Assembly: GCA_963825295.1 (NCBI GenBank)
Contig: CAWGSZ010000002.1
Span: 31,762-95,761 of the forward strand
Origin: Vicinamibacterales bacterium
GTDB taxonomy: Bacteria; Acidobacteriota; Vicinamibacteria; Vicinamibacterales; JAMQPK01
Length of the DNA stretch: 64,000 nucleotides
Direction of reading: 5' to 3'
In this document: positions 1,389 to 59,733 of the stretch, piece by piece
Position numbering within the stretch: position 1 is the stretch's first letter
Layout: each line of letters opens with the position of its first letter
Made by a program: the position numbers and the translations under genes
Notes under the pieces: model-generated
Database searches by the model: none
Told to the model about the DNA's origin: nothing
What the model saw: the letters and a program-made list of their open reading frames with translations, nothing else

Positions 1389-2763
1389 TGAGACCAGGGA
1401 TTAGGGCAGGGATTAGGGATCGGGGATTAGGGATTGGGGCAGCGACGGGTGTCACGCTGATGCTCGCCGTGTTGGCGCCGCGCTCGGTGTCCGCGCAGAC
1501 CCCCGCGAATCTGCCTTCGCCGCGCCGCGGCTCCGGTGGCGACCGACGAACCCCACGAACCCGACGAACCCCACGAACCCTACGAACCCCACAAAGTCGT
1601 CCGACGTATCTGTTCCCCCGATCGAGTGCTGGTGGAAGACCGATCGCAGCGCGGTGAGCGTCGGCGAGCACTTCCAACTGACCCTGACGTGCGCGGTGCT
1701 CGCGACCGATCGGGTGTCGGTGGTGGTGGACGAGTCGAGCCTCGAACCGTCGGCGCTGCATTTGACGCCGTTCGAGATCATCGGCGGCCAGCGGTTTCGC
1801 GAGATCCTGAACGCGCCGCGGAAGTTCTTCCAGTACCAGTACACGATGCGCGTCCTCGGCGAGGAGTTCTTCGGCAAGGAAGTTCCGCTGCCGCGTCTGC
1901 AGATTACTTACAAGGTGCAGAACTCGCTGCAGGGCGGGGCGGCGCTCCAGGGCCGCGAGGCGCAGTATTCGCTCGTGCCGGTGCCCATCCGGGTGCTGTC
2001 GCTCGTTCCTCCAGGCGCCGTGGACATCCGCGATACCCCGAGCGACACGTTCGGCGACGTCGAGACGCGCCTCTTCCGATCGAACATCTTCCTTATTGTT
2101 GCCGCCGTGGCGTTTCTCGCCGCCGGCCTGATGGTGGTGATGCTCCTGGCGCGCGCGGCCGTCAGGCGGCGTGCGTTGACGGCGGCGCGCCATCGAACGG
2201 TCTCGTCGATGACCGTGCTCGGCGCGGCCATCCGCGAGCTCGCGATCGTGCGGGCGGAGAGCTCGCGCGCCGGTTGGACGGGCGAGCTGGCCGGGCGGGC
2301 GGCAGCGGCCGTGCGGCTGGCCGGGGCCGTCGCGTTGTCGCGTCCGGTGAGTCACAAGGAAGTGGATCGTCAAACGTCGCCCAGTGAAGGTCAGGTGGTT
2401 GCACCAGCCGGGCTCGCCACCCTGCGAGGGAAAGCCACGATGCTGTCGGCGGCCGTGACGCCTGAATCCTCTGTATCGAACGGCGATCCCCGCCCCGAAG
2501 GGCGTGGCGCCGAGTTGTGGCGATCGCTCAGCCAGTCGCTGGGTGTCTTCACGGCCGCAAGGTACACGCGCCCCTCGGCCAGCTCGGGGCGCCCCGATGC
2601 TGTTGAGGGGCGTAACGGCACGCTCGATCAGGCGGCGCTCGACTCGGCGCTGGCCGAAAGCCAGGACGCCGTGAAGCGGCTGCGTGTCCGACAGGTCCTT
2701 CGATTCGGCCGCAGGAAGCCGCACGCCGAAACCGCAGGCGCCCGACCAACATGGGCACGCTGA
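1385..2763 (+). CDS. BatD-like secreted/membrane protein, apparent frameshift between signal peptide and body
   Basis: ATG 1385 (ATGA overlap with the DUF58 stop) gives the signal peptide MMRPGIRAGIRDRGLGIGAATGVTLMLAVLAPRSVSAQ in frame 2. The body (PIECWWKTDRSAVSVGEHFQLTLTC..., ORF 1654..2763, one C-terminal TM helix) is in frame 1. Frame 1 has no start codon after its last stop at 1414-1416. The shift must lie between 1417 and 1657. The BatD assignment rests on position in the operon and architecture only. Confidence 0.5.
1397..1439 (+). repeat. GGGATTA-family tandem array with seven G-tracts (G-quadruplex motif)
   Basis: Read directly: GGG atta GGG ca GGG atta GGG atc GGGG atta GGG att GGGG. 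It lies in codons 5-18 of the downstream gene. Confidence 0.9.
1544..1588 (+). repeat. 9-bp tandem array NNACGAACC, 5 copies
   Basis: Read directly: cgacgaacc ccacgaacc cgacgaacc ccacgaacc ctacgaacc. It reads PTNPTNPTNPTNPT in the frame of the protein body. The same unit family occurs at 48876-48962. Confidence 0.9.
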
Positions 2764-3848
2764 ACGCGCTCATCGAGCTCGTCGTGCAGACGCTGGGCGA
2801 GTGGCGGGACTCGGGCATCGCGGATCTCGTCTTCCCGTCGAAGAACGCGGCGCTTCTCGCGACGGTGCTGCTGGGCCTGATGGCGGCGATTCTGGTCGTC
2901 TGGCGTTCGCTGCGGGGCCGGCTGGCCGGCCGCACGGCGATCACGCTGCCGGCGGTGCTGCCGCGCATTCGACGCTCGCCGCTGGCGTTCGTGCGGCAGG
3001 CCCCGTTCCTGCTGTTTCTCGCGGGCCTTCCGTTCTTCGGCCTCGCGCTGGCCGATCCGCACTCCACCTTGTCGGCCAAGCAGGTGTCGTATCCGGGACG
3101 CCGCATCGCCGTCATCATGGACGCCTCGCTCAGCATGCTGTCGCCGTTCAGCGGCCAGCAGCTGAAGACGCAGAGCGACACGGCCTTCTCGAACACGATG
3201 GCGGCGGCGGAGTATTTCATCCGCGTCCGCATGAAGGGGCACTACCGCGATCTGATCGCGCTCGAGCAGTTCGGGAACGAGGCGTACGTCATCACGCCGT
3301 TCACGACCGACTACGACAACCTGCTCTTGAGCCTCAAGATGATCAGCGACGTCAACGAGTGGCAGCGCTTTCCCGATCAGGGGACGATCATCATGAAGGC
3401 GATCGACGAGGGGGTCGACCTCTTCAACGCCTTCAACTTTCTCGAATCGTCGGGCAACATCATGGTGATCTTCAGCGACGGCCAGGACAACAACGTGCAG
3501 ATCGGCACGATGTCGCTGGAGCAGGTGCTGAAGAAGGCAGTGGACAACAAGGTGCCCGTCTACATGATTCGCACCGCCTACGCGCGCGGGCTGTTCGACG
3601 TCGTCCCCGATCAGGTGTGGAAGAAGGCGATCGACGCCACCGGCGGGCGGTTCTACCCGGCGGCGAGCCAGGAAACCATCATGCAGGCGATCAAGGAGAT
3701 CGACGCGGCCGCGACCGGCCGCGTGAACGTGCGCGAGTACGCCGTCAAGCAGCCGCGGTACCAGAAGTTCGCGCTGGCCGCGGTGGCGCTGTGGACGCTC
3801 GCGCTGGGGCTGCAAATGAGTCTGCGGGTGTTCAGGACGTTTCCCTGA
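2751..3848 (+). CDS. VWA domain-containing membrane protein (BatA-like)
   Basis: ORF 2751..3848. It has N-terminal TM helices followed by RRIAVIMDASLSM (a VWA MIDAS-like DxSxS motif). It overlaps the upstream gene end by 13 nt. Confidence 0.8.
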   Translation: MGTLNALIELVVQTLGEWRDSGIADLVFPSKNAALLATVLLGLMAAILVVWRSLRGRLAGRTAITLPAVLPRIRRSPLAFVRQAPFLLFLAGLPFFGLALADPHSTLSAKQVSYPGRRIAVIMDASLSMLSPFSGQQLKTQSDTAFSNTMAAAEYFIRVRMKGHYRDLIALEQFGNEAYVITPFTTDYDNLLLSLKMISDVNEWQRFPDQGTIIMKAIDEGVDLFNAFNFLESSGNIMVIFSDGQDNNVQIGTMSLEQVLKKAVDNKVPVYMIRTAYARGLFDVVPDQVWKKAIDATGGRFYPAASQETIMQAIKEIDAAATGRVNVREYAVKQPRYQKFALAAVALWTLALGLQMSLRVFRTFP

Positions 3849-3871
3849 GCACGCGCGTAACAGGAGCCAAC

Positions 3872-4579
3872 ATGCGGCGCTCAATTCCAATTTTCGTCGT
3901 TGCCATCGTGTTCGCCCTGCTGGGCGGCGTCCTGCTGTCGGCGGGACTGTTCGAGCGCAGGATGGCCATTGCCCAGGAAGACATGGCGGTCCTCGACTTC
4001 ACCGATCCCGCGATTGAATACGCGAAGCTCGAGGAGGAGATTGCGGGGGTGCCCCTGGTCTCGGAAAGCGCGCTCAAGGACATTCACCGCCGGCGCGCCA
4101 CGCTTCAGTACTGGCAAAAAGACTATGCGGACCTCATCGAGGTGGCCCGCCAGGCGGCGACCACCGACGACGCCGCCTCGATCGATCCGGAGATGCGCGT
4201 GCTGGCGGCAAACGCCCTGTATCGCGTGGCGCAGCGCGGACCGCAGGATCGCGTGACGCTCCTCAGGAATCTCGACGCGGCGGTTCGCGCCTACAACGAG
4301 GCGCTGCGCGCGGGTGTCGAGCGGCAGGACGTCGCGTTCAACTACGAGCTGGCCGTGCGGATGCGCGAAGAGGTGGGCGCCGGCAAGCGGAAGGCGCTCC
4401 AGAACATGAAGGCGGAAGACGTCGAGAGCGATCCGAACATGCACGGCGATCCCGGCGAGCCGCCGAAGGATCTGAAGGTGGAGCAGTTCCAGATTCGGAT
4501 TCCGATGGATCCGAAGGAAATCAAGCAGAGCCAGGAACAGGCCGCCGGAACCGGCGCTGCCCGCCGGAAACGCGGCTGA
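3872..4579 (+). CDS. Membrane-anchored hypothetical protein in the BatC position of the operon
   Basis: ATG 3872 is preceded by AGGAG at 3862-3866. The product starts MRRSIPIFVVAIVFALLGGVLLSAG, followed by a helical acidic/basic region. This is the tail of ORF 2684..4579, whose upstream part overlaps the VWA gene out of frame. Confidence 0.6.
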   Translation: MRRSIPIFVVAIVFALLGGVLLSAGLFERRMAIAQEDMAVLDFTDPAIEYAKLEEEIAGVPLVSESALKDIHRRRATLQYWQKDYADLIEVARQAATTDDAASIDPEMRVLAANALYRVAQRGPQDRVTLLRNLDAAVRAYNEALRAGVERQDVAFNYELAVRMREEVGAGKRKALQNMKAEDVESDPNMHGDPGEPPKDLKVEQFQIRIPMDPKEIKQSQEQAAGTGAARRKRG

Positions 4580-4582
4580 TCA

Positions 4583-4612
4583 GGGATTAGGGACTGGGGA
4601 TTAGGGATTAGG
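4583..4612 (+). repeat. GGGATTA-family array (G-quadruplex motif) filling the spacer before the next start codon
   Basis: Read directly: GGG atta GGG act GGGG atta GGG atta GG. It ends 2 nt before GTG 4615. Confidence 0.9.
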
Positions 4613-5736: not shown

Positions 5737-5768
5737 AGGAGACTAGGAGATTAGGAGATAAGGATCTG
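5737..5768 (+). repeat. 8-bp tandem array AGGAGATT, 4 copies
   Basis: Read directly: aggagact aggagatt aggagata aggatctg. It lies 13 nt after the stop of the VWA gene. There are four GGA motifs in 32 nt. Confidence 0.9.
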
Positions 5769-6329: not shown

Positions 6330-7911
6330 CTACTTCAGCGCCGGCGTGGATGCGGGCGGGCGGCGGTGATGCGTGGCCTGCTCGTACCAGATACGCCAGC
6401 TTGATCAACGTCACCTCGTCCCAGGCCTTGCCGAAGAACGTGATGCCCGCCGGCAGCGTGCCATTGCGCGTGTAGCCCATCGGCACCTGGATGGCGGGGA
6501 AGCCGGTGGTGGGTGAGAACACCTGGCTATTGTCGCCGTGCGGCGTGTTCAGATCGCCGATGAGCCGCGGCGGATTGCTCCAGGTCGGATACACGAACGC
6601 ATCGAGCCGCTCGGCCTCCATCGTCTTCATGACGGCCGCACGAAACGCCTCGCGGTAGTCCGCCTCGGCCTTGCACGCCGGTGTTTCGGGGCCGTTCTCG
6701 GCGCCTTCCTGCGCGCGCTGCAGCCGCAGCTCGACAGAAGGATGAAAGCTCCGGCTCTTGATGATCTCTTCCACCGAATGCACCGGCACGCGATCGCCCT
6801 GCGCCGCCAGATAGCGATTCATGTCGTACTTGAAGCCGCCGCAGGCGGGACCGCCGGCCATGCGCTGCACGTGGGTCAGATCGACGGCGGCGGGATCGAC
6901 GATCGTCGCGCCGGCCCGCTTCATCGTCTCGATCGCCGCCATGAACACCGAGACGATTTCCGAATCGGTCGTTTCGCGCTCGTACGCCTGCCGGAGGATG
7001 CCGATGCGCGCGCCCTTCAACGCGTCACGGACGAGCGCCGCCCGGTAGTCGGGCAGCATCGCCGGACGGCCGCCGGGACGAAGCCCCGGCTGCACGTACT
7101 CGCGTGCGAGCGTCACGGGGTCGTTCGGATCTTCGCCGGCAATGACCTGGAACACGGCGACGGCATCTTCGACCGTGCGTGTGATCGGACCCGCGATGTC
7201 GGCGAGCAGGTTCAGCGGCGCCACCCCCGCCCGGCTCGTCAGCCCCATCGTCGAGCGGATGCCCACCAGGCTCTGGTGCGAGGACGGGCCGCGAATCGAG
7301 TTGCCCGTGTCGCTGCCGAGACCCACCGCGCCGAAGTTCGCCGCCACGGCAGCCGCCGTTCCGCCGCTCGAGCCCGCGGTGACGCGATCGAGGGCGTATG
7401 GATTCTTCGTGTAGCCGGGGAGGATCGAGCTGATCGTTTCGTATGGCGTAAAGGCGAACTCCGCCATGTTCGACTTCGCGAGCACGATCGCGCCGGCACG
7501 CCTGATGCGCTGCACCTGGAACGCGTCCGCGTTCGACACGAATCCCTTCAGCGACAGCGAGCCGTCGGCGCTCTGCAGCTCCATCGTCTCGAAATTGTCC
7601 TTGACGATCGCCGGCACGCAATGGAGCGGTCCAGCGGGGACGCCGGTCTTGTACCGGCGATCGAGATCGGCGGCCTGCTTGAGGGCGGCTGGATTCGAGA
7701 CGACGAGCGCGTTGAGGGCCGGTCCCTTCTTGTCGTACGCGTCGATGCGCCGCAGGTAGTGATCGACCAGCGCGTGGCAGGTAAGGCGGCCGGCCTTCAT
7801 CTCCGCGTGAATGCCGGCAATCGTGGCCTCTTCGATCGCAAATCGCTGTCCGCCCTGCGCCGCGGCCATCGCGGTTGCCAGTGCGATCAGCGGGAAGAGC
7901 AGCCTGTTCAC
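6330..7911 (-). CDS. Secreted amidase (amidase signature family), apparent frameshift near the 3' end
   Basis: ORF 6118..7911. It carries a signal peptide and the signature [33 protein letters not shown]. After ...LIKLAY (about 6385-6390) the listed frame becomes low-complexity. A 1-nt shift reads [18 protein letters not shown] and stops at 6330-6332. Confidence 0.8.
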
Positions 7912-9312: not shown

Positions 9313-9348
9313 GAAAAAGAGAAAGGGCGCCGGATCACTCCGGCGCCC
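9313..9348 (-). terminator. Intrinsic terminator downstream of actE
   Basis: The minus strand reads GGGCGCCGG agtgat CCGGCGCCC followed by TTTCTCTTTTTC. An adjacent perfect 20-bp palindrome CTTTTTCAGGCCTGAAAAAG lies at 9300-9319. Confidence 0.65.
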
Positions 9349-9382
9349 CCTCAGCCCTTAGCCCTTAGCCCTCAGCCTTTAC
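9348..9382 (-). repeat. 7-bp array CCCTTAG/CCCTCAG, 5 copies (G-tracts on the minus, sense strand)
   Basis: Read directly: ccctcag cccttag cccttag ccctcag cctttac. It starts at the actE stop codon. The minus strand reads GG ctga GGG ctaa GGG ctaa GGG ctga GGGGG. Confidence 0.9.
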
Positions 9383-9770: not shown

Positions 9771-10274
9771 TTACACCCAGTTTACCTTAGTCGCCCCGGC
9801 CCCGTTGAGGGCGGTCTCCACCGTTTGACGCAAGCCGTCGGGACATGCGACGGCGAGCACGATGCCTCCGTCCACGACGCTGGGATCGTAGGGCAGGTTC
9901 TTGAAGTTGGGCAGTCCCAGTTCGACCAGCAGGCCGACCAGCGTGGCGATCACGGCGCCCAGCATCGTCGTTTCGTAGGTGATGAGGCCGACGGTCCACG
10001 GCGCGACGATAGGCATGCCGCCCTTGATCAGCGGGTAGTTCAACGCCGTGATCGTGGAGAGCGCGAAACCGCTCAGCAGCCCGATGGCGGCGCCCGAAAG
10101 CGCCCAGGTACGCAGCTTCGTGGGCTTCTTCTCCGGCACGATGCGTTCGCCATGAATCGGCTGCGACGACATGACCTCCATCGATTCGGGATCGATGCCG
10201 TCCTTGATGAGGCGCCGCACGGCGACGCGCGCCTGGGTGTGCTCGGCGAACTTGACGAGGCAGGTCTGGGCCAT
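9771..10274 (-). CDS. actD: ActD-like membrane subunit (DUF3341) of alternative complex III
   Basis: ORF 9771..10286, with the likely ATG at 10274 (MAQTCLVKFAEHTQARVAVRRLIKDG). It has two C-terminal TM helices. It lies 2 nt upstream of actE. Confidence 0.7.
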   Translation of the reverse strand: MAQTCLVKFAEHTQARVAVRRLIKDGIDPESMEVMSSQPIHGERIVPEKKPTKLRTWALSGAAIGLLSGFALSTITALNYPLIKGGMPIVAPWTVGLITYETTMLGAVIATLVGLLVELGLPNFKNLPYDPSVVDGGIVLAVACPDGLRQTVETALNGAGATKVNWV

Positions 10275-10287
10275 AGTGAATCTCAAA

Positions 10288-10357
10288 CTAGAATCTAAAA
10301 ACTAAAAACTAGAAACTACAACCGAGAACTGAAAACTGAAAACCGACGACTGAAAAC
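10288..10357. repeat. AT-rich 7-bp array (CTAGAAT/CTAAAAA/TGAAAAC), 10 units, filling the actC-actD spacer
   Basis: Read directly: ctagaat ctaaaaa ctaaaaa ctagaaa ctacaac cgagaac tgaaaac tgaaaac cgacgac tgaaaac. Confidence 0.9.
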
Positions 10358-11748
10358 TAATGAGCAGGATGCACGTCGCCCGCCACCTGCGTTCCGATGC
10401 TCGCCGGGTGATGCTCCGCCACCGTGTGTTTGGCAACCGAGTACCCCTCTTCGATCTCCCAGATGGAAATCATCGGGCTGAACTTGGCGAAGAGGAAATA
10501 CAACAGGACGAACAGGCCCAGCGTGCCCGATGCGATAGTCGCTTCAATGAGCGACGGGAAGTACGTACCGTAGTTGTACGGCAGGTACGGATGCGTGAGC
10601 GTAGGCACGATAATCAGGAACCGCTCCAGCCACATGCCGACGAGAATGCAGGTCGACGCGACGAAGATGAGCGGAATCGTCCGCAGCTTCTTGATCGCCA
10701 GAATCGGGAACGGGATCACGAAGTTGCACACGACCATCAGCCAGAAGAGCGGGGCGAAGCGGCCCGAAATCTTCGACCAGAAGACCGGCATCTCGGGCGC
10801 CTCGTTGCCGTACCACGTCACGAGGTACTCCGTGAACGTGAAGTAGAACCACAGCAGGCTCATCGCGAACAGCATTTTCGCGAGGTTGTCGAAATGGATC
10901 GGCAGCAGGTACTGCTCGAGCTTGAAGTACTTCCGGATAAGCACCATGGCGATCAGCAGCGCGGCGATACCCGAGAAGATGGCCCCGACGACGAAGTACG
11001 GTCCGAAGATGGTGCTGCGCCACATCGGCATCAGCGTCATCGCGAAGTCCCACGACACGATCGTGTGAACCGACACCGCGACCGGAATGATGATGAGCGC
11101 CATGATGGAGATGGCTTTTTCCAGCCGCACCCATTCCCGTTCCGTTCCCCGCCATCCGAGCGCGAGCATGCGGTACATCTTCTTGCGCCAGCCGGTGGCT
11201 TTATCGCGCGCGACGGCCATGTCGGGAATCATCGGCAGGTACAGGTAGGTGACGCTGCCGGTGAGGTAGGTGTTGATGGCGATGAAATCCCACATCAGCG
11301 GCGACTGGAAGTTCGGCCACAGGTACCGGTTGTTGGGCACCGGGATCATCCAGTAGAACAGCCACGCGCGTCCGAGGTGGACGATGGGAAAGAGCGAGCC
11401 GGTACAGAGGGCGAATGTGGTGATCGCTTCCGCGCACCGGGTGATCGGCCTGCGCCACTCGGCCTGCACGACCCGCAGAATGGCCGAGATGAGCGTGCCG
11501 GCGTGGCTGATGCCGATCCAGAAGACGAACGTCGTGATGTAGAGGCCCCAGAACGACGGGCGGTTCTTGCCCGCCATGCCGATGCCGTATTTCAGCTGAA
11601 AGAACCAGGCCACGAACACCATGCCCGTCACCGCGAGGAGCACGGCGAGCATGATGTAGTACTTCGGTCCGGTCTTGAAGAGCGGACCCAGCAGGTCGCG
11701 ATTGATCTGGGCTTCCGTTGGATGAAAGGGTGCCGGAGTCTGAGCCAC
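10357..11748 (-). CDS. actC: NrfD/PsrC-family integral membrane quinol-interacting subunit (ActC-like)
   Basis: ORF 10357..11748, 463 aa. It is polytopic, and its position directly after the Fe-S subunit (1-nt gap) is typical of ACIII and polysulfide-reductase-like complexes. Confidence 0.85.
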   Translation of the reverse strand: MAQTPAPFHPTEAQINRDLLGPLFKTGPKYYIMLAVLLAVTGMVFVAWFFQLKYGIGMAGKNRPSFWGLYITTFVFWIGISHAGTLISAILRVVQAEWRRPITRCAEAITTFALCTGSLFPIVHLGRAWLFYWMIPVPNNRYLWPNFQSPLMWDFIAINTYLTGSVTYLYLPMIPDMAVARDKATGWRKKMYRMLALGWRGTEREWVRLEKAISIMALIIIPVAVSVHTIVSWDFAMTLMPMWRSTIFGPYFVVGAIFSGIAALLIAMVLIRKYFKLEQYLLPIHFDNLAKMLFAMSLLWFYFTFTEYLVTWYGNEAPEMPVFWSKISGRFAPLFWLMVVCNFVIPFPILAIKKLRTIPLIFVASTCILVGMWLERFLIIVPTLTHPYLPYNYGTYFPSLIEATIASGTLGLFVLLYFLFAKFSPMISIWEIEEGYSVAKHTVAEHHPASIGTQVAGDVHPAH

Positions 11749-11749
11749 G

Positions 11750-12436
11750 TTAGGCGTCCCCTTCCTTCAAGTACACGACGCGCGGCCGGGTGCCGAGCTC
11801 TTCGAGCAGCCGGTACCCGCGGCGCGAATGCGCCAGCTTCGAGACGCGGCTCTCGGGGTCGGTCATGTCGCCGAACGTGATCACCTTCGACGGGCAGGCC
11901 TGCGCGCAGGCGGGCTGAATCTCGCCGTCACGCACGCCGCGGGTTTCGTCCTTGGCCGTGTCCTGCGCGCGACGGATGCGCTGCACGCAGAAGGTGCACT
12001 TCTCCATGATGCCGCTCGTGCGGATCGACACGTCGGGGTTGAGCTGCTCGTTCAGCGGGCTCGGCCACTCGGGGGTGAACCAGGTGAAGTAGCGCGCCGT
12101 GTACGGGCAGTTGTTCGCGCAGAAGCGCGTGCCCACGCAGCGGTTGTAGACCTGGGCGTTCAGGCCCTCGGGCGTGTGATACGTCGCGTTGACGGGGCAG
12201 ACCGGCTCGCAGGGCGCCGCATCGCACTGCTGGCACATCACCGGCATGAAGCGCGCCCGGATGTTCGGGAATTCACCCTCCCAGTAGCGTTCGACGCGAA
12301 TCCACTGATGCGTCCGGCCGTTGGCCGCCTGCTCCTCGCCGACGACCGGCAGATTGTTTTCGGCATGGCACGCCACGACGCAGGCTTCGCAGCCCGTGCA
12401 GCGATCCAGGTCGATTGTCATTCCCCACTGGGCCAT
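11750..12436 (-). CDS. actB: 4Fe-4S ferredoxin-type iron-sulfur subunit (ActB2-like)
   Basis: ORF 11750..12436. Cys clusters: CTGCEACVVACH, CQQCDAAPCEPVCP, CVGTRFCANNCP and CTFCVQR...CAQACP. Confidence 0.85.
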   Translation of the reverse strand: MAQWGMTIDLDRCTGCEACVVACHAENNLPVVGEEQAANGRTHQWIRVERYWEGEFPNIRARFMPVMCQQCDAAPCEPVCPVNATYHTPEGLNAQVYNRCVGTRFCANNCPYTARYFTWFTPEWPSPLNEQLNPDVSIRTSGIMEKCTFCVQRIRRAQDTAKDETRGVRDGEIQPACAQACPSKVITFGDMTDPESRVSKLAHSRRGYRLLEELGTRPRVVYLKEGDA

Positions 12437-12443
12437 TGGAACT

Positions 12444-12506
12444 CCGAATCTAAAATCTAGAATCTACAATCTGAAATCTTCGAACTGATAACTGAAAACT
12501 GAAACC
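12444..12506. repeat. AT-rich 7-bp array (TAGAATC/TGAAAAC family), 9 units, filling the actB1-actB2 spacer
   Basis: Read directly: ccgaatc taaaatc tagaatc tacaatc tgaaatc ttcgaac tgataac tgaaaac tgaaacc. Confidence 0.9.
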
Positions 12507-12512
12507 CGGTTC

Positions 12513-14830
12513 TTACCGATGCAACGGATGCTCGTGATGCCCGCGAGCATCGCTGGCGCCGAACCGTACCAACCTGACATTCCGTCCCGTTTTGGTGATG
12601 CCGACGCGCACGCCGGTCTGCAGCACCGCGCCAGTTGTGGTGTCGAGCGCCGACTGGCTGATGCGCAGGGGATTCTCGCCGCGATTCTGCGCGTAGCGGC
12701 CGAACTGCGTATGACCCTGACCGGCCGGAATCGCGATGACGTCCGGACGCAGGCCGGGATACAGGAATGCCGGGAGCTCGATGATGCCGTGCGCCGATCT
12801 GATCGTCAGCACGTCTCCCTCGTGGATCTCCATCTTGTGCGCCGTTTCCGGATTGATTTCGACCCACGATCCCCACATGACGGTGGTCATCGGGTCGGGC
12901 ATTTCCTGCAACCACGGCAGATGCGCGCTGCGTCCATCGGCGAACGCGGCCGACGGATAGATGTGCAGCATGTACGGCATCCCGGCGACGTCGCCCGCAA
13001 ATGGCCGTGCGGCCACCGGCTGCGCAGGCACGACGAAGTTCATGCGCCCGGAAACGGGGTCGGGAGGGGTTTTCGATCCCTTCTCCGCGAAAACCCCTCC
13101 CGACCCCGTTTGGGCCGACACCGCAGGCGCGGGATTCCACCATCCTCCCGCCGCGGTCACCTTGCGATAGAACGCCTCGAAGTCGGCCTCGACCGTCGAG
13201 CCCGCCTGCAGCGTGTGAACCGATCGGAACGATTCCTTCACCGCAGCCGCCATGTTCTCGAACGGCATGGCTTCGGCGGCCTTCCCTCCGAGTGCCTTCG
13301 CCGTTTCAATCAGGACGTCACCGGGGTCACGGGTCTCCCATCGTGGCTCGACGACAGGCTGACCGAGCGTCCGCACCGCAAATCCAACGCCCGGTTCCGG
13401 CACATCGTCGATCCATCGCTCGAGCGAGACGTGGCTCGGGAGAATCAGATCGGCCATGACGGAGGTTTCGTCGAGAAACGACGCCAGGCTCGCGATGAAC
13501 GGCACGTTCGCCAGCGCCGATCGCAGCTTGTCGGCTTCAGGCAGCGAGAAGAGAGGATTGGTGTCGAGCACGACCAGCGCCTTGATCTGGCTCTGCCCCA
13601 TCGCACCGATGAGCGCATGAATATCGGTGTGAGGTGCCGCTCCCTGCGCGGGTACGGGCCCGCTCGTGTCATCGGCCCCGAACAGGATGCCGCCCTGGCG
13701 GCCGTATGCGCCCACGAGCGCATTCAGCGCGAAGATCGCCGTCAGCGACGCGACGTCGCGGCTGTCGCCGATGGCGACGCTCGGCCGGCGCGCGGCGAAC
13801 TCGCGCGCGATGCGCTGGATTGACGCGGCAGGCACGTCGATCGCGGCGGCCACTTTCTCTGGCGCGTAGTCGCCGAGCGAGGCCGACCATGCCGCGAACC
13901 CGTTCGTCCGCTGATCCACGAAGTCGGCGTCGTAGAGCTTCTCGTTGACGATCACGTTGAGCCATCGCGAGCGCGAGCAGGCCTTCGGTGCCGGGCTTCA
14001 TCGGCAGCCACTCGTCGGCGCACGCCGCCGTCTGCGACAGCCGCGGCTCTGCGTGGACGAACTTGCCGCGTATGCCCGGGCGTCCCTGGCGGAACTCGCC
14101 GTACCGAGTACATGTAGCGCACGGGCGAGAGGAACGTCTCGAACAGGTTCGCGTTGAACGACAGCAGATAGTTCGCGCGGGCGAAGTCGACGGCTGGAAG
14201 CCGCGAGACGCCCGTGACCAGCTCCATCGCCTTGCGAATGGGCGCGGGATCGAACGGATCGTACGAGACGACATGGTTCGTGCCGAGGCCGGCGGCGAAG
14301 CGTTCGACGACGGTGCCCATGGTGCCGCGGTTGCGGCGGCCGGAGAGGAGCGCGATCGCCTGCGGCGACGCTTGCTGCTGCTGCAGCGCGGTCACGAGCT
14401 GCTGCTGCGCTTCCTTCCAGGTGATGGGTTGATACTGCCCCGTGCCGCGCGGTCCGAGGAGCTTGAGCGGCGTCTGGATGCGATCGGGGTGATAGAGCGC
14501 CTGCACGCCGGCCTGCCCGCGGGCGCAGGTGCCGCCCATGCTGATCGGATGCTCGGGGTTCCCCTCGATCTTCTTCGCCTGCACCGCCTTGACGCGTTTC
14601 TGCTGTCCGTCGATCGTGCGGATCGACTCACCCTGCATCACGCGAACGGTGATGCCGCATCCCGCGGAGCATTGCTGGCAGAGCGTTCGCACCCAGCCTT
14701 CTTCGCCCGGCACGAACCGATCTTCGGACACGAGCAGCGGAATCAACTGCTGCGGTTTGCCGCACCCGTCGAGGATGAGCCCGGCGGTGCCCGCGACGCC
14801 GCCGGTTTTGAGGAAATCGCGTCTTTTCAT
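12513..14830 (-). CDS. actB: Molybdopterin-oxidoreductase-like subunit (ActB1-like), two apparent frameshifts
   Basis: It has the Tat signal MKRRDFLKTGGVAGTAG and the motif CQQCSAGCG. Three ORF pieces join into one protein if two indels are corrected: 13952..14830, the YGEFRQGRPGIRGKFVHAEPRLSQTAACADEWLPMKPGTEGLLALAMA segment of 13669..14274, and 12513..13955. The indels are at about 14104-14105 (GG run) and 13957-13958 (AA run). With the second fix the junction reads LALAMAHVIVNEKLYDADF. Confidence 0.8.
13052..13111. repeat. Perfect 24-bp inverted repeat with a 12-nt loop (60 bp total) inside the actB1 coding sequence
   Basis: aaacggggtcgggaggggttttcg (13052-13075), atcccttctccg, cgaaaacccctcccgaccccgttt (13088-13111). 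The same arms occur at 47677-47775. Confidence 0.9.
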
Positions 14831-15332: not shown

Positions 15333-15406
15333 GCGTAGTCTGTGCTCAGGGAATTAGGCTAGTCGTGTCGAGGCGCGAAAGTTTATATCGCTTTGAGTAC
15401 CGAAGT

Positions 15407-17961: not shown

Positions 17962-18541
17962 GGTTCGCCTCATCTTCTTCGAACAATCGATCGGCTGCGA
18001 GACGTGCGCGCCGACCAGGCGCGCGCTCGAGCAGATCGTCGACGAGAACGAGCACGTGGAGCTCGAAGCGCTCAATCTCGTGCTCGACAGGGAGAAAGCC
18101 GCCGAGTACGGCGTGGATCGGGTGCCCGCGGTTATCATCGAGGCGCCCGGACGCGATCGCATTCGCTACTACGGCGCGCCGCTGGGCTACGAGTTGCCCA
18201 CGCTGGCGGAAGCCGTGCACATGGCGGCGACCGGCGAAACGCGGCTCAGCGACGAGAGCCGCGCGCAGCTGAAAGCATTGACGACACCCGTGCACCTGCA
18301 GGTGTTCTACACGCCAGGCTGCGTCTATTGCCCGCGGATGATTTCGCTGGCGAATCAAGCCGCCATCGAAAGTCCGCTCGTGACCAGCGTGGCCATCGAT
18401 GCCGCGGAGTTCCCGGATCTCGTCCGCCGCTACAACGTGAACGGCGTGCCCAAGACGGTGATCAACGACTCGCTCGAGCTCATGGGAGCCGCGCCGGAAG
18501 AGGACTTCATGGCGGCTCTTGCCCAATCCACCGGGGAATAG
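17945..18541 (+). CDS. Two-domain thioredoxin-fold protein disulfide oxidoreductase (glutaredoxin-like)
   Basis: ORF 17945..18541. The CETC and CVYC motifs sit in two thioredoxin-like halves. It overlaps the upstream gene by 17 nt. Confidence 0.75.
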   Translation: MTSSSKVRLIFFEQSIGCETCAPTRRALEQIVDENEHVELEALNLVLDREKAAEYGVDRVPAVIIEAPGRDRIRYYGAPLGYELPTLAEAVHMAATGETRLSDESRAQLKALTTPVHLQVFYTPGCVYCPRMISLANQAAIESPLVTSVAIDAAEFPDLVRRYNVNGVPKTVINDSLELMGAAPEEDFMAALAQSTGE

Positions 18542-18564
18542 GGAATAGGGATTGGGGATTAGGG
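18533..18564 (+). repeat. GGGAATA/GGGATTA array with five G-tracts (G-quadruplex motif)
   Basis: Read directly: GGGG aata GGG aata GGG att GGGG atta GGG. It contains the upstream TAG stop (18539-18541) and the downstream TTG start (18552). Confidence 0.9.
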
Positions 18565-20402: not shown

Positions 20403-20447
20403 TCGCGCACCCATCGCACCTATCGCACCTATCGCACCTATCGATAT
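20403..20447 (+). repeat. 9-bp array NATCGCACC, about 4-5 copies
   Basis: Read directly: (gtcgcgcac) ccatcgcac ctatcgcac ctatcgcac ctatcgata. It starts directly after the M61 stop. Confidence 0.9.
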
Positions 20448-20460: not shown

Positions 20461-20571
20461 ATGTCCGACCCCTCTCCGCGCAACTGGACGCGCATCTATC
20501 TCACCGTCATGGCCGTCGAAGCGCTCGCGCTGCTTTGCCTGTTGTGGCTGCAGCGCCACTACGGGATCTGA
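20461..20571 (+). CDS. Small (36 aa) single-TM protein preceding the symporter
   Basis: Not in the ORF track because it is under 60 aa. It reads MSDPSPRNWTRIYLTVMAVEALALLCLLWLQRHYGI. It has strong G/C preference at third positions, and its stop lies 3 nt before the symporter ATG. Confidence 0.55.
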   Translation: MSDPSPRNWTRIYLTVMAVEALALLCLLWLQRHYGI

Positions 20572-20574
20572 TCC

Positions 20575-22293: not shown

Positions 22294-22320
22294 TGGTCTT
22301 CTGACCTTTTGATCTTCTGT
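22266..22320. repeat. 8-bp array AGAAGATC, 3 copies, followed by its reverse complement TCTTCTGA, 3 copies (hairpin, terminator-like)
   Basis: agaagatc agaagatc agaagaaa, ataatgg, tcttctga ccttttga tcttctgt. The stem is about 23 bp with 3 mismatches. The left arm encodes the symporter tail EDQKIRRK. Confidence 0.85.
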
Positions 22321-22381
22321 TAAGGGGTACCGAGCAAGCTTCGGATAGATTGAAATCAGACCGCGGGTTATCGTCGTCTGT

Positions 22382-23247: not shown

Positions 23248-23317
23248 CGACTTGACGACTTTCGACCTGCGTCAGACGCCTTGCGCCCGCCGACTTTCGA
23301 CTTGCGACTTTCGACTA
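23248..23317 (+). repeat. 7-bp array NCGACTT, about 10 units (central units degenerate)
   Basis: Read directly: cgacttg acgactt tcgacct gcgtcag acgcctt gcgcccg ccgactt tcgactt gcgactt tcgacta. Confidence 0.85.
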
Positions 23318-36655: not shown

Positions 36656-36661
36656 GAAGCG

Positions 36662-40542: not shown

Positions 40543-40598
40543 TGGAGTAAAAAGTCAAAAGTGAAAAGTGAAAAGTGAAAAGTTGAAGGTGAACGAGA
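40543..40598 (+). repeat. 7-bp array AAAAGTG, about 8 units, filling the hlyD-ABC spacer
   Basis: (gtggagt) aaaagtc aaaagtg aaaagtg aaaagtg aaaagtt gaaggtg aacgaga. It ends 1 nt before ATG 40600. Confidence 0.9.
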
Positions 40599-46073: not shown

Positions 46074-46148
46074 AAGAGATTAAGAGATTAGAAGAATAGA
46101 ATCTGTTCAGAAAAGACTCGTCGTCTTCTGATTCTTCTGACCTTCTGT
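46074..46148. repeat. 8-bp array AAGAGATT/AGAAGAAT, 4 copies, then TCTTCTGA-type units, 3 copies (same family as 22266-22320)
   Basis: aagagatt aagagatt agaagaat agaatctg, ttcagaaaagactcgtcg, tcttctga ttcttctga ccttctgt. It is preceded by gccaaa gccaaa. Confidence 0.85.
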
Positions 46149-48414: not shown

Positions 48415-48986
48415 TGAGCCTGTACGAGATCCCGTTGACGACAATCGACGGCCAGACGGTCACGCTCGATCGCTACCGTGGGAAGAGGCTCCTCATCGTG
48501 AACGTGGCGAGCCGGTGCGGGTTCACCCCTCAATACAAGGGACTGGAAGAGCTCTACCGGCGGCGCAAGGACGATCTCGTCGTCCTCGGGTTCCCCTGCA
48601 ATCAATTCGGCCGTCAGGAGCCTGGCAGCAACGAGGAGATACGCCAGTTCTGCGACGACTATTGCAGCGTGACGTTTCCGCTGTTCGCCAGAATCGAGGT
48701 CAACGGCGCGAACGCGCACCCGCTGTTTCGCTTTCTGAAAGCGGAGAAAAGAGGATTTCTGGGACGCGAAGCGATTGCGTGGAACTTCACGAAGTTCCTC
48801 GTTGGACCCGGCGGCGACGTGCTGAAGCGCTACGGGTCGCGCGTGAAGCCGGAAGCCATCGAGAAGGAGCTGTACGGGTTCGTCAGGTTCGTGAGGTTCG
48901 TGGGTTCGTCAGGTTCGACGAACTTACGAACCGACGAACTTGACGAACCCGACGAACCGACAAGGTATTCTCATGACAGACGATGA
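48414..48986 (+). CDS. gpx: Glutathione peroxidase (Cys type) with a repeat-encoded C-terminal extension
   Basis: This is the tail of ORF 48354..48986, starting at ATG 48414 (TGATG overlap). Motifs: NVASRCGFTPQY, LGFPCNQFGRQEPG and WNFTKFLV. The last ~35 aa (GFVRFVRFVGSSGSTNLRTDELDEPDEPTR...) are translated from the 9-bp array. Confidence 0.85.
   Translation: MSLYEIPLTTIDGQTVTLDRYRGKRLLIVNVASRCGFTPQYKGLEELYRRRKDDLVVLGFPCNQFGRQEPGSNEEIRQFCDDYCSVTFPLFARIEVNGANAHPLFRFLKAEKRGFLGREAIAWNFTKFLVGPGGDVLKRYGSRVKPEAIEKELYGFVRFVRFVGSSGSTNLRTDELDEPDEPTRYSHDRR
48876..48962. repeat. Dyad-symmetric 9-bp array: GGTTCGTNN, 5 copies, then NNACGAACC-type units, 5 copies
   Basis: gggttcgtc aggttcgtg aggttcgtg ggttcgtc aggttcgac, then gaacttac gaaccgac gaacttgac gaacccgac gaaccgaca. 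The arms can pair over about 40 nt. Confidence 0.9.
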
Positions 48987-54238: not shown

Positions 54239-55221
54239 TGTACCGGCAACTCGGTAGAAGCGGCTTGAGGGTATCGGCGATTGGCCTGGGGTGCATGGGC
54301 ATGTCGCAGAGCTACGGGACGCCCGACGCCGACGAATCCATTCGCACGATCCATCGCGCCCTCGACCTCGGCGTCACGCTCGTGGATACGGCGAACGTGT
54401 ACGGCAAGGGAGAGAACGAGGAGCTCGTGGGCCGCGCCATTCGCGACCGGCGGAAAGAGGTGGTGCTGGCGACGAAGTTCGGCCTCAGCATGGGTGCCAG
54501 CGCGATGTCGGCGGGCGTTGACGCCAGGGCCGAGCTCGTCGGGCCGTCGTGCGACGCGAGCCTCGCCCGTCTCGGGGTGGACGTCATCGATCTCTACTAC
54601 CTCCACCGCGTCGATCCCGGGGTGCCCATCGAAGAGACGGTTGGGGCGATGGCGGATCTCGTTCGCGCAGGGAAAGTGCGCTTTCTCGGGCTGTCGGAAG
54701 CGGGTCCAGACACATTGCGCCGCGCGGCGAAGATTCATTCCATCGCCGCGCTTCAGTCGGAGTTCTCGCTCTGGTCGAGAGATCCGGAGCGGGGCGTGCT
54801 CTCAGCGTGCCGCGAGCTTGGCATCGGCTTCGTGCCATTCAGCCCGCTCGGCCGCGGGTTCCTGACCGGCACGGTGAAGGACACCGGCGGTCTCGTGGAG
54901 AACGACGTCCGCCGGCATCTGCCGCGCTTTCAGCAGGAGAACATTTCCCGGAACGTGCGTCTTGTCGAAGGTCTCGAGGGCATGGCGCGCTCGAAGGGCT
55001 GCTCGGCGGCGCAGCTCGCGCTCGCGTGGCTGCTGCACAAGGGCGACGACATCGTGCCCATTCCCGGCACGAAGCGCCTCCGGTACCTGGAAGAGAACGT
55101 CGAAGCCGTGAACATCACGCTGACGCCTCGAGAAATGAGCGAGCTCGATGACTCGTTTCAGGCCGGCGCCGTCGCGGGCGAGCGTTACGGACCTGAGAGC
55201 CTGAAGTTGGTGGAAAACTAG
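54235..55221 (+). CDS. Aldo/keto reductase
   Basis: It starts [24 protein letters not shown], with the ATG overlapping the corrected upstream stop (ATGA). Other motifs are LVDTANVYG and LGLSEAG. Confidence 0.85.
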
Positions 55222-55270
55222 AATCTAAAATCTAGAATCTAGAACTAAAATCTAGAATCTGAATAGAATC
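55219..55270 (+). repeat. AT-rich 7-bp array TAGAATC/TAAAATC, about 7 units; the first unit contains the AKR stop codon
   Basis: Read directly: tagaatc taaaatc tagaatc tagaac taaaatc tagaatc tgaatag aatcttc. Confidence 0.9.
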
Positions 55271-55278
55271 TTCGAGCA

Positions 55279-55572
55279 ATGCACTACCTGCTTTTTTACG
55301 AAGCCGGGGCGGATTATGCGGAACGGCGGCAGCCGTTCCGGGTGGCACATCTCCAGCACGCGCGCAATGCGGTCGCACGCGGCGAGCTCGTGCTCGGCGG
55401 CGCGCTGGCCAATCCGATCGATGGAGCCGTGCTGCTGTTCCGCGGCGATTCGTCAGCCGCCGCGGAGCAGTTTGCGAAAACCGATCCCTACGTGACGAAC
55501 GGCGTCATTCAGCGATGGCACGTGCGCGAATGGACGACGGTTGTGGGTAACGATGCTGAAACTAAAATCTAA
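55279..55572 (+). CDS. YciI family protein
   Basis: ORF 55279..55572. It reads MHYLLFYEAGADYAERRQPFRVAHLQHARNAVARGELVLGGAL. The last codons (AETKI) come from the next array. Confidence 0.8.
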   Translation: MHYLLFYEAGADYAERRQPFRVAHLQHARNAVARGELVLGGALANPIDGAVLLFRGDSSAAAEQFAKTDPYVTNGVIQRWHVREWTTVVGNDAETKI

Positions 55573-55610
55573 AAACTAGAATCTAGAATCTGGAATCTGA
55601 AACCTTAAGA
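55556..55610 (+). repeat. AT-rich 7-bp array CTAAAAT/CTAGAAT, about 8 units
   Basis: Read directly: ctgaaa ctaaaat ctaaaaa ctagaat ctagaat ctggaat ctgaaac cttaaga. Confidence 0.9.
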
Positions 55611-58431: not shown

Positions 58432-58550
58432 GGTTTGCGTGATTATACGGGCGGGGCGGCCGCGCGGACCGTATTACTCTAGACTGACGCCGGAGTGTAG
58501 ACCGATTCGTGGGCTGCGCGCACAAGCCCACAGGAGCTGCGGGCGGACGC

Positions 58551-58620
58551 GATCTAGAAACCAGGAACTGAGATCCAGAGATTTCAGATTCTAGTTTGTA
58601 GATTTTAGTTTCTAGATTCA
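58551..58620. repeat. Dyad arrangement of the CTAGAAA-family 7-mers: 4 forward units then 6 reverse-complement units
   Basis: ctagaaa ccaggaa ctgagat ccagag, then agatttc agattct agtttgt agatttt agtttct agattca. tctagaaac (58553) pairs with gtttctaga (58608). It abuts the stop of the YVTN gene. Confidence 0.85.
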
Positions 58621-59733
58621 GCGAATAGCCACGCCCCACGGACTCCGGCCGCCGGGCACCGTCGCGATGACCGCCATCGTCTCGGCGTCGATGACGGAGA
58701 TGTCGTTCGACGGGCCGTTGGCGGTGTAGAGGCGCTTGCCGTCGGGCGAAATGCCTACACCCCACGGCCGCTGGCCCGCCTTCACGGATCCCACCACCTC
58801 GTCCTTGGCCGTATCGATGGCAAGGAGCATCGTGCCCCGGCCGGTGGTGACGTACACGCGCTTGCCGTCGGGCGCGGCGATGACGCCCATCGGTCTCGCG
58901 AGCTCGCCGGTGATCTTGAGCGTCTTGGTCACCGAGTGATTTTTCGTGTTGATGACGTGCACGGTGCCGCCGTTCTCGGCCGTGATGTACGCCTTCGAGC
59001 TGTCTGGTAGAAATTCCGACGATCGGGGGCGCGCGCCGACCTCGAACTGCTTGATCGCCTTGTTGGTGGCGGTGTCGATGACCGTAATCTGATTGTCCTC
59101 TTCCGACGTGACGTACACCCACTGACCGTTCGGGCTCGTCGTGACGCCCTCCGGCTCGCCGCCGACCTTCACTTCCCCGATCACCTTGTTGCTGGCGACG
59201 TCGAGGATGCTCGCGACGCCCGCGTCCTCGTTCGACACGTAGACCTTCGAGCCGTCCGCGCTCAGCGAAATTTGCTCGGGGTCCGATCCGCTGGTGAGCA
59301 CGGTCGTGACTTTCCGCGCCGCGATGTCGACCACGCCTATGCCGTCGGCAGTCCGGTCGGGGGGCGGTAGCTTGCTCTCATCCGTTCCCGGTGGCGCCAT
59401 CGGCGACCCGCTGAGCGCGACGAACAGCTTCGTCCCGTCCGGGCTCACCTTGATGCCCCTCGGTCGCTTGCCGAGCGGGATCGTCGTGACGACCTGATTC
59501 GTGCCGCCATCGATGACAGTCAGATCGCCGCCGATTTCATTCGTGACATAGACGTAATACGGCGCTTTCGGCGGCTCCGGCGCGGGTGCCGCCGGCGGAG
59601 GAGCGGCAGCCTGTTCAGGCTGCGGCTGACCACCGCCGCACCCGGAAATCGCGGCCAGCAAGATCAGCGAAGAAAGCGTGACGCGCGCGTTCAGAGCTAA
59701 TCCCCAATCCCTAATCCCTAATCCCTTGCTCAT
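58618..59733 (-). CDS. YVTN-family beta-propeller repeat lipoprotein
   Basis: ORF 58618..59733. It has the lipobox LLAAISGC and repeats YVTNE, YVSNED, YVTSEED, YITAENG and YVTTGRG. A GGAGAG ribosome-binding site lies 6 nt upstream of the ATG. Confidence 0.8.
   Translation of the reverse strand: MSKGLGIRDWGLALNARVTLSSLILLAAISGCGGGQPQPEQAAAPPPAAPAPEPPKAPYYVYVTNEIGGDLTVIDGGTNQVVTTIPLGKRPRGIKVSPDGTKLFVALSGSPMAPPGTDESKLPPPDRTADGIGVVDIAARKVTTVLTSGSDPEQISLSADGSKVYVSNEDAGVASILDVASNKVIGEVKVGGEPEGVTTSPNGQWVYVTSEEDNQITVIDTATNKAIKQFEVGARPRSSEFLPDSSKAYITAENGGTVHVINTKNHSVTKTLKITGELARPMGVIAAPDGKRVYVTTGRGTMLLAIDTAKDEVVGSVKAGQRPWGVGISPDGKRLYTANGPSNDISVIDAETMAVIATVPGGRSPWGVAIR
59702..59725 (-). repeat. GGGATTA array (four G-tracts on the minus, sense strand) in codons 4-11 of the YVTN gene
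   Basis: The plus strand reads cccc aat ccc taat ccc taat ccc. The minus strand reads GGG atta GGG atta GGG att GGGG. Confidence 0.9.

Follow-up and report, generated by a model that had tools for sequence, protein, structure and literature searches.

Short tandem arrays occupy many of the intergenic spacers in a 64,000-nt stretch of DNA from a soil member of the Vicinamibacterales (Acidobacteriota), hereafter called the window, whose genes include an operon for the alternative complex III (ACIII). The arrays are built of imperfect units of mostly 7 nt, with matches of 67–100% according to Tandem Repeats Finder (TRF), and typically begin just past a stop codon. With overlapping TRF rows merged and a threshold of at least 2.8 copies, the window holds 31 of them, compared with 3.1 in dinucleotide-preserving shuffles and 4.3 after shuffling inside 100-bp blocks; the excess persists under the latter null model, which retains AT-rich islands. 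Sixteen of the 31 have period 7, three have period 8 and six have period 9, and for periods 7 and 8 the 19 observed arrays compare with 1.3–1.6 in the shuffles. As we describe in the following, they belong to a lineage-wide population of long simple sequence repeats (SSRs), mostly of 7 nt, that is typical of Vicinamibacterales and some other Acidobacteriota.

The arrays had been noticed in a reading of the window from its letters alone (the sequence-only reading), which listed them and sorted them into recurring unit families. TRF reports an array at every position named there, and self-BLAST bears out the families by linking the arrays at 1407 and 4581, those at 18534 and 59725 (as reverse complement) and those at 10285, 12446, 55215, 55559 and 58612. 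One assignment failed: the proposed reverse complement of NATCGCACC at 23221 comprises two loose copies only and is unreported by TRF. The statement that nearly every spacer is made of arrays also went too far. On our gene map, a crude one built from third-position GC, arrays are present in 16 of the 32 spacers of at least 25 bp, but the share reaches only little over half (~16/29) even after removal of three array-free ‘spacers’ that are uncalled or frameshifted genes; the fraction of a spacer that is covered ranges from 7% to 100%. That the arrays form AT-rich islands was correct, their mean GC being 50% against 65% in the DNA around, a level held throughout the window.

For comparison, we collected relatives with two proteins from the window. 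A one-genome-per-species scan with the Pfam-assigned ACIII subunit ActC (10357–11748, minus strand) yielded 24 syntenic loci as well as Bryobacterales and Myxococcota outgroups. ActC identity at the syntenic loci is 74–96% (83–96% in 20 of the 24), and they are labelled mostly as Vicinamibacterales, with a few broader Acidobacteriota and one Bifidobacteriaceae, probably a wrong label. Four close relatives share 0.90–0.93 of third codon positions with the window, while the rest are saturated at ~0.6. An exact-sequence look-up of the window's own ActC gave no match, and no cultured Vicinamibacteraceae genome came up in the protein search. Likewise, a metagenome scan with an HlyD-like protein (39534–40541) returned 80 soil contigs. 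Lineage statistics below refer to 526 kb, that is, the window and the 24 relatives, and outgroup statistics to 245 kb. Orthologous arrays occur in independent assemblies, namely in long-read metagenome-assembled genomes and in megahit and SPAdes soil contigs. Since short- and long-read assemblies of many samples thus carry arrays in the same spacers, an origin as assembly artefacts is excluded.

Arrays along the window

Four arrays are of the GGGATTA type, and in all of them the G-rich strand is the sense strand. The first (1395–1439, plus strand, 6.6 copies) begins 7 nt past the stop of a DUF58 gene and is in frame with an ATG at 1385 and a signal peptide (MMRPGIRAGIRDRGLGIGAATGVTLMLAVLAPRSVSAQ); its predicted folding energy is −18.5 kcal/mol when G-quadruplexes are considered and −6.1 kcal/mol otherwise. 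The second (4578–4612, plus strand, 5 copies, four G-tracts) occupies a whole 35-nt spacer from the stop at 4579 to the GTG start of a VWA gene at 4615. The third, of GGGAATA/GGGATTG units (18534–18564, plus strand, 4.4 copies), spans both the TAG stop of a thioredoxin-like gene and the TTG start of an M61 peptidase gene (LGIRVVLLTLWLAAPALALAQ), and the fourth (59697–59726, minus strand, 4.3 copies, reading CTAATCC on the plus strand) is contained in codons 1–12 of a lipoprotein gene (MSKGLGIRDWGLALNARVTLSSLILLAAISGC). Another G-rich heptamer, CTAAGGG (9348–9381, minus strand, CCCTTAG on the plus strand, 4.9 copies), begins at the stop of a small gene of the ACIII operon. It is directly followed by an intrinsic terminator (9352–9321), the sole convincing one in the window, which stands beside the array and not within it.

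The second large group consists of T-rich or AT-rich heptamers. In the ACIII operon, composite arrays on the minus strand fill the actC–actD spacer (10285–10360; sense units TTTTCAG, TTTCTAG and GATTCTA), where the RNA is predicted to be unstructured, and precede the gene of the Fe-S subunit (12447–12504; TTTCAGT, then GATTCTA). Further arrays of this group are found at 55218–55271 (CTAGAAT/CTAAAAT, plus strand, 7 copies), beginning within the stop codon (55219–55221) of a gene for a 1044-residue protein, at 55559–55602 (CTAAAAT/CTAGAAT, plus strand, ~6 copies), and at 58551–58619 (CTAGAAA-type, minus strand, one half partly inverted, TRF range 58582–58619), directly past the stop of a beta-propeller gene (58618). 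Three heptamer arrays have other units. The CGACTTT-type array at 23248–23316 (plus strand) has 3.7 copies at 23291–23316 and looser ones upstream, with no stable fold predicted. Between convergent genes at 36587–36652, four copies of GATGGCA are followed by 4.6 copies of the reverse complement TGCCATC, giving a perfect-type long hairpin without a U tract. Finally, AAAAGTG (40546–40583, plus strand, 5.4 copies) lies in the spacer between the HlyD and ABC ATPase genes and is the least structured among the sampled 80-nt windows.

Octamer arrays, all on the plus strand, comprise AGGAGATT (5737–5764, 3.5 copies), 13 nt past the stop of the VWA gene; AGAAGATC (22265–22320), with 2.9 copies (TRF range 22265–22287) at the 3′ end of an SSF symporter ORF and inverted copies past its stop that together form a 66-nt hairpin; and AAGAGATT (46074–46147), with 2.1 copies of the octamer, a partly inverted CTTCTGATY set and a weak predicted hairpin. 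The sequence-only reading had three of the four nonamer arrays read through by ORFs, and comparison with relatives shows that three are translated. The array of ACGAACCCC at 1543–1592 (plus strand, 5.2 copies) encodes a (TNP)n linker behind the signal peptide of a secreted Bat-operon protein, and it is in frame in L019, L023, L039 and other relatives. The array of GAGAGTCNN at 39388–39518 (plus strand, 13 copies, with an 18-nt super-period) continues the reading frame of the conserved C-terminal part of a TetR-family protein, where relatives show an (ES[RK])n tail, and its reading frame ends at a TGA that overlaps the HlyD ATG (39534). At 48877–48961 (plus strand), GGTTCGTSA nonamers are followed by their reverse complement CGACGAACY in a 96-nt hairpin; a glutathione peroxidase ORF reads through the array as its C-terminal tail, and the array stops just short of an ICMT-family gene. 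The fourth, CGCACCTAT (20406–20443, plus strand, 4.2 copies), is non-coding, lies 4 nt past the M61 peptidase stop and is exceptional in being C-rich on the sense strand. Between this array and the sodium:solute symporter gene, a small ORF absent from our gene map (MSDPSPRNWTRIYLTVMAVEALALLCLLWLQRHYGI, 20463–20574) looks like a small membrane subunit.

Some observations concern the genes and spacers themselves. Two ACIII spacers (10266–10345 and 12428–12508) have an identical order of sub-arrays, TTTCAGT-type followed by GATTCTA-type, and align over 84 bp with 78.6% identity. This suggests copying between neighbouring arrays. In the same operon, the molybdopterin subunit is encoded by two minus-strand ORFs (12513–13955 and 13952–14830) with a 4-nt overlap, one with a TAT signal, an Fe4S4 domain and the start of the Molybdopterin domain, the other with the rest; the split is common to the window and all syntenic relatives, whereas other Acidobacteriota have a single gene for 726–763 residues. 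Upstream of the first ACIII cytochrome gene, an array-free segment (15333–15406, minus strand) is conserved across relatives with the motif TAGACTT...GATA(T/G)A(A/G)ACTTTCGCG and is likely a promoter or leader element.

Furthermore, three genes of the window are each broken across two frames and form a single ORF in close relatives: that of the secreted Bat-operon protein (1385–1657 and 1417–2763), an E1-beta/transketolase-like gene (35569–36249 and 35915–36553), in which the frame break cuts through the Transket_pyr domain, and that of the TetR-family protein (38763–39389 and 39346–39537), with a 1-nt insertion near 39300 relative to the relative L040. These breaks are probably assembly indel errors and otherwise mark three pseudogenes, and exact array copy numbers in the window therefore call for some caution.

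Placement, strand and structure

Arrays in co-directional spacers begin at stops, as had been proposed, with a median distance of 5 nt past the stop and of at most 10 nt in 56 of 93. They do not, as the same proposal had it, end a few nucleotides before the next start, the median gap being 37 nt and at most 20 nt in 34 of 93. Their density per kb is 2.89 in convergent, 1.69 in co-directional and 0.82 in divergent spacers. The 7-nt phase even extends into the stop codon: a fraction of 0.43 of its bases recur 7 nt further on, compared with 0.22–0.30 at other offsets. Stop-codon usage of array-abutting genes is no different from that of other genes (chi-square p = 0.105), and we reject seeding at particular stop codons on this ground. 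Within the sense units, TAG is enriched (30 of 85 versus 13.5 ± 3.2 expected), a count inflated by orthologous loci. The sequence-only reading had named in advance the outcomes that would leave only slippage noise without positional logic, among them arrays no more frequent at gene boundaries than elsewhere and shared by no relative. Since the stop-proximal placement is real and common to the relatives, that positional logic stands.

This placement bears on the proposal that the arrays are phase-variation (contingency) loci, which we take together with that of an assembly artefact. Both could draw on the tandem nature of the repeats, on copy numbers that differ between relatives and, for the latter, on the frame breaks described above. 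The units, however, are imperfect, whereas contingency tracts are nearly perfect and sit in the promoter or the 5′ coding part of surface or virulence genes. The arrays lie past stops instead, next to housekeeping genes for ACIII, transporters, peptidases and redox enzymes. We therefore reject phase variation as we do the artefact, and place next to no confidence in either.

Reading frame shapes the distribution further. Outside called genes we counted 118 arrays of period 7, 21 of period 8, 18 of period 9 and eight of period 6; inside genes there are 23 of period 7, 14 of period 9 and 11 of period 6. With 84% of period-7 arrays outside ORFs and 14 of 32 period-9 arrays inside, the idea that only frame-preserving repeats are tolerated in coding DNA finds support. 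The accompanying claim was that 7- and 8-bp arrays lie mostly in spacers; the GGGATTA arrays at 1395, 18534 and 59697 are not purely in spacers and enter the 5′ ends of ORFs, where they are translated into GIRDWGL-like segments of signal-peptide n-regions (MMRPGIRAGIRDRGLGIG..., LGIRVVLL... and, with a lipobox, MSKGLGIRDWGLALNARVTLSSLILLAAISGC). Heptamers are thus not strictly excluded from coding DNA. Relatives without these arrays have shorter n-regions, and in the n-region arrays unit variants such as GGGATTG avoid in-frame TAG codons.

The arrays are also biased in strand. Their sense strand contains 0.205 C and 0.281 G, whereas the remaining spacer sequence (0.307 and 0.297) and coding DNA (0.317 and 0.324) are both balanced; the depletion of C is specific to the arrays. 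Of the distinct stop-adjacent units, 22 have more G than C and five have more C than G; in the window alone the figures are 15 and six. Likewise, GGGATTR-type arrays read AGGGATT on the sense strand in 13 cases and ATTGGGG in four, as opposed to three antisense cases.

By predicted structure, the arrays fall into three types. Where the two halves are inverted, long hairpins result, as the sequence-only reading had anticipated: 36580–36660 folds at −48.7 kcal/mol (z −7.4), 48870–48965 at −63.2 kcal/mol (z −8.8) and 22260–22325 at −33.8 kcal/mol (z −6.6). The G-rich arm comes first in 16 inverted pairs and second in seven, so that we dropped an absolute rule of a G-rich 5′ arm in favour of a trend. 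Three-layer quadruplexes are the predicted fold of the GGGATTR and CTAAGGG arrays (−10.7 to −18.5 kcal/mol, versus −4.5 to −7.7 kcal/mol without quadruplexes), and the GGGATTR runs have three phased G-tracts in 10 cases, four in 17, five in 11 and six in one, counts that include orthologous loci and hence are not independent. Finally, unidirectional AT-rich arrays are among the 0–3% least structured 80-nt windows of the region.

None of the standard feature classes that had been considered beforehand, namely CRISPR, REP elements, terminators and promoters, explains the set, and this part of the earlier assessment holds; a published class, the heptanucleotide-dominated long SSRs discussed at the end, does fit. 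CRISPR arrays are ruled out, as the units are 7–9 nt long and directly adjacent, with no 23–50-nt repeats separated by unique spacers. No Rfam 15 family matches at gathering threshold anywhere in the window, its 39 terminator-like sites are at the chance level of ~35 expected from shuffles, its three sigma-70 promoter-like sites compare with ~7.6 expected, and the inverted-array hairpins have no U tracts; we reject these three explanations accordingly.

Unit families among relatives

The 85 co-directional heptamer arrays comprise 49 distinct sense units, and this argues against a motif-specific factor. Nevertheless, each unit family might serve one particular protein as a tandem platform, be it of the CsrA-like, the cold-shock or the nucleoid-associated kind, or a binder of quadruplexes. 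GGA-containing units resemble CsrA targets, the GGGATTR and YAGWTTY families are found at unlinked loci of the window and its relatives, and the array at 39388 has a GAGTC core conserved across relatives. This core, however, is part of the translated low-complexity (ES[RK])n tail, and we dropped it as a protein or methylase site. Given further the dozens of unrelated units, the quick replacement of families in orthologous spacers and the lack of an identified candidate factor, we regard such a platform as improbable.

This replacement can be followed with increasing distance. Between the window and close relatives with 7–10% third-position divergence, the actC–actD array is homologous and differs by gaps of 7, 18 and 41 nt. 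On a metagenome contig with a 98% identical HlyD, GGAATAG and RGTAAAC units take the place of the AGTGAAA units of the window, and the two arrays have in common the last unit GGTGAAC and the flank. Units of one genome resemble each other more closely than they do those of the orthologous array, which is the mark of concerted evolution. At greater divergence, one and the same spacer holds at least five to six different unit families among relatives. At the ActB spacer, for instance, these are TTTCAG/GATTCTA, GGAAGATT with inverted AATCTGCC, GGTTCTG with CAGAACC, GGGCTTT with AAAGCCC, and AAACGGAG with CTCCGTTT, while the HlyD–ABC spacer mostly holds GGGATTR, but also GGGCAAA and others. In one relative (L016) the unit family of the window appears in the opposite orientation, and several are array-free at the orthologous spacer, with a stop-to-start gap of 11 nt only. 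At the other extreme, the GGGATTA array at 4578 has kept four or five G-tracts throughout, in the window as well as in L002, L003 and L039.

On a broader scale, the distribution is patchy. Intergenic heptamer arrays are absent from the 245 kb of outgroup DNA (Myxococcota and Bryobacterales). Among the metagenome contigs, array density falls with distance, from 3.1 per 10 kb at HlyD identities of at least 74% to 1.4–1.7 below. Within Acidobacteriota, arrays are few in a Blastocatellia genome, and those of period 7 are missing from one of Candidatus Acidoferrales, while a distant soil lineage (L123/L124, ActC 65% identical) has ~12 arrays in 21 kb. In this lineage, represented by the JGI soil contigs Ga0207646_10000025 and Ga0070707_100000082, the arrays are even denser, and with few exceptions they take up co-directional spacers completely, between stop and start, as inverted pairs (for instance at 7063–7120, 12608–12714, 18779–18852 and 19802–19896).

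It appears very improbable that the arrays are a small mobile element of the REP or MITE kind that spreads between spacers. Their extragenic, presumably transcribed 3′ positions and their inverted pairs resemble the REP/BIME niche, and a composite layout is common to two ACIII spacers; but self-BLAST matches between different window arrays (29–84 bp) end at the array edges, the two ACIII spacers being the one exception, with no common flanks, terminal repeats or target duplications, and the units drift gradually in situ. We ruled out REP/BIME and MITE elements on these grounds. No transposase is found among the ~29 of ~55 ORFs that were scanned with Pfam, RAYT-type transposases not having been searched for.

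Origin of the arrays and comparison with known repeats

Taken together, we think it probable that the arrays are slippage-generated repeats filtered by selection, without a single dedicated function or a motif-specific partner. Slipped-strand mispairing at replication or repair would create them and keep remodelling them, with gain and loss of whole units and homogenization of units inside one array, and template switching around a hairpin could copy an array to the opposite arm and so give rise to the inverted versions. Arrays would then persist only where frame-breaking DNA is tolerated. Such places would be the stretch directly past a stop, if the spacer is co-directional or convergent, and those ORF ends that can bear an insertion, for example the n-region of a signal peptide, a C-terminal tail or a linker. 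ORF interiors would be closed to them unless an array is stop-free and adds a net multiple of three bases, and selection would keep them rare in divergent, promoter-bearing spacers. The poverty of the sense strand in C may have arisen because C-rich unstructured RNA in operons would load Rho, as the arrays are presumably transcribed within operon mRNAs. As by-products, we would expect the three structural types, quadruplex-prone arrays (GGGATTR, GGGCTAA), long hairpins and unstructured AU-rich islands, which may locally tune mRNA stability or the translation of the next cistron. The excess over chance and the predominance of heptamers in this lineage only support this reading, as does the match between the traits of the arrays and those of published heptanucleotide long SSRs (PMC4692102; PMC4679880). 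Further support comes from the presence of arrays in independent assemblies, the gaps between close relatives, the concerted evolution, the turnover of families with loss or reversal of arrays, the many distinct sense units, the density by spacer type, the array-free promoter-like spacer, the translated nonamers, the depletion of C, the 7-nt phase within stop codons and the lack of common flanks. Positions, periods, strand bias, turnover and lineage distribution are thus shown by the data, whereas slippage, the selective filters and transcription are inferred from them.

Several points weigh against it. Some spacers stay occupied across relatives with saturated third positions, and a few families, GGGATTR and YAGWTTY, are met again at unlinked loci and in phyla far removed, which could mean selection for the presence of arrays and not mere tolerance. 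The GGGATTR runs have their mode at four to five phased G-tracts, with a dip at three, as neutral slippage would not predict, and the array at 4578 is not hypervariable in four genomes. Moreover, the lineage counts pool orthologous loci, so that many of them are not independent.

Alternatively, the arrays could be selected cis-acting RNA or DNA modules punctuating operons. Quadruplex and hairpin arrays would stabilize or pause the 3′ ends of upstream mRNAs, AU-rich unstructured arrays would let a ribosome stand by, or S1 bind, ahead of the next cistron, and the C-poor composition would shield untranslated spacer RNA from Rho. The stop-proximal placement with the G-rich strand as sense, the preference for four to five G-tracts in GGGATTR arrays with predicted quadruplex-aware folds of −12.3 to −18.5 kcal/mol, hairpin z-scores of −6.6 to −8.8, the extreme lack of structure in AT-rich arrays, the prevalence of G-arm-first inverted pairs and the occupancy of some spacers over deep divergence all speak for such modules; in several relatives, an array even replaces a short spacer bearing a Shine-Dalgarno sequence, up to the start codon. 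Yet orthologous spacers of only 11 nt are array-free within the same essential operon, both unit and structural type vary among orthologous spacers, and even orientation can flip. The hairpins lack U tracts, terminator-like sites are at shuffle level and there is no covariation-type conservation. Also, in the closest studied case, the quadruplex-forming heptamer repeats of Xanthomonas and Nostoc, the authors could find no regulatory role (Rehm et al., 2015; PMC4692102). Overall, we hold selected modules to be possible but unlikely.

The most far-reaching interpretation, about which we are more doubtful still, is that selection maintains the arrays as a modular ‘operon punctuation’ in Vicinamibacterales and in some Acidobacteriota besides, or else that they reflect a lineage-specific replication or repair activity that favours 7-nt slippage. 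Either would explain why spacers remain occupied despite replacement of their sequence. If punctuation is true, quadruplex, hairpin and unstructured AU-rich heptamer modules, each poor in C on the sense strand, would be interchangeable; maintained behind stop codons, they would set Rho access, the stability of mRNA 3′ ends and re-initiation at the following cistron. To our knowledge, heptanucleotide arrays have been known in scattered bacteria since 1990 and 2007, and nobody has shown the reason for period 7 or any action of the arrays. Few groups of soil bacteria are as abundant as Vicinamibacterales, for which many long-read genomes exist. As one can follow in their operon spacers how arrays arise, exchange units, invert and disappear, the lineage is a good natural system for studying slippage dynamics and for ideas on Rho avoidance, quadruplexes and translational coupling; it is also suited to finding the replication or repair trait that separates array-rich from array-poor lineages in one phylum. 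Apart from this, the arrays matter for annotation: predicted starts and stops are displaced by them, genes gain translated tails or segments of signal peptides, and at these sites it is difficult to tell indel errors of long reads from true variation.

Among known repeat systems, the REP/BIME elements of enterobacteria are transcribed and extragenic, lie 3′ of genes in operons or between convergent genes, often form hairpins and avoid promoters. The arrays, presumably transcribed as well, share this niche, often form hairpins and are likewise rare at promoters; but REP elements are dispersed copies of a conserved ~35-nt palindrome that are mobilized by RAYT, whereas the arrays are locally grown 7–9-mers without common flanks. 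Cyanobacterial STRR (short tandemly repeated repetitive) heptamers also stand in tandem between genes; several families of them coexist in a genome, and, like the arrays, they are typical of their lineage. They differ in phylum and in unit sequence, the units CCCCAGT, TTGGTCA and CAACAGT of heterocystous cyanobacteria being absent from the TRF consensus units here, and since cyanobacterial genomes are AT-richer, STRR arrays are not AT islands.

Direct TAACTGA repeats are known from marine Beggiatoaceae and some Cyanobacteria and Bacteroidetes (MacGregor, 2015; PMC4679880). Like our arrays, they are intergenic heptamers near ORF boundaries, including those of essential genes, but among them one motif dominates and mostly lies a few nucleotides upstream of starts (PMC4679880), whereas here many motifs are anchored to the upstream stop. 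Related units (AACTGAA/TAACTGA) occur at 12483–12504, with a single TAACTGA inside AACTGATAACTGAAAACTGAAA; with only this one copy and stop-anchored arrays, the window does not belong to the TAACTGA-repeat class.

The repeats of Xanthomonas and Nostoc (GGGAATC and GGGGA(C/T)T) come closer (Rehm et al., 2015; PMC4692102). In both cases the arrays are G-rich on the coding strand, overlap the stop or lie within 50 bp past it, are single or in inverted pairs, have a mode of about four G-tracts, are deficient between divergent ORFs and neighbour housekeeping genes, and their position is conserved between relatives while their length varies (PMC4692102). The GGGATTR runs show the preference for about four units, with the proviso that orthologous loci are not independent, and we find the same G-rich sense strand, stop-proximal placement and deficit in divergent spacers. 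On the other hand, GGGATTA/G is one of many families here, its quadruplexes are predicted, and over larger divergence the family itself is replaced. The units of this type (GGGATTA, GGGATTG and GGGATCG) mostly do not fit GGGNATC, while GGGGATT, in another phase, equals the Nostoc unit.

The broadest match is to the long SSRs of Mrázek et al. (2007), which, as related in PMC4679880 and PMC4692102, have units of 5–11 nt, most commonly heptanucleotides, are intergenic except for 3n units in genes, have a sporadic phylogenetic distribution and are proposed to arise by slippage; the frame argument made above is already attributed to that work in these two sources. At all array coordinates given here, TRF finds head-to-tail units of period 7, 8 or 9 in 2–13 copies. 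Like the long SSRs as related there, the arrays are tandem repeats above chance level, exceed what composition predicts, have heptamers as their commonest class, occur in large, high-GC genomes of non-pathogens, favour intergenic positions with 3n units tolerated in coding DNA and are patchily distributed. Compared with that account, they differ in the unusually large number of coexisting unit families (49 sense units in 85 arrays), and our literature search found no report of such repeats in Acidobacteria or Vicinamibacter. The arrays are, in conclusion, of the known long-SSR kind, and what is new is the lineage in which they occur and the many unit families that coexist in it.

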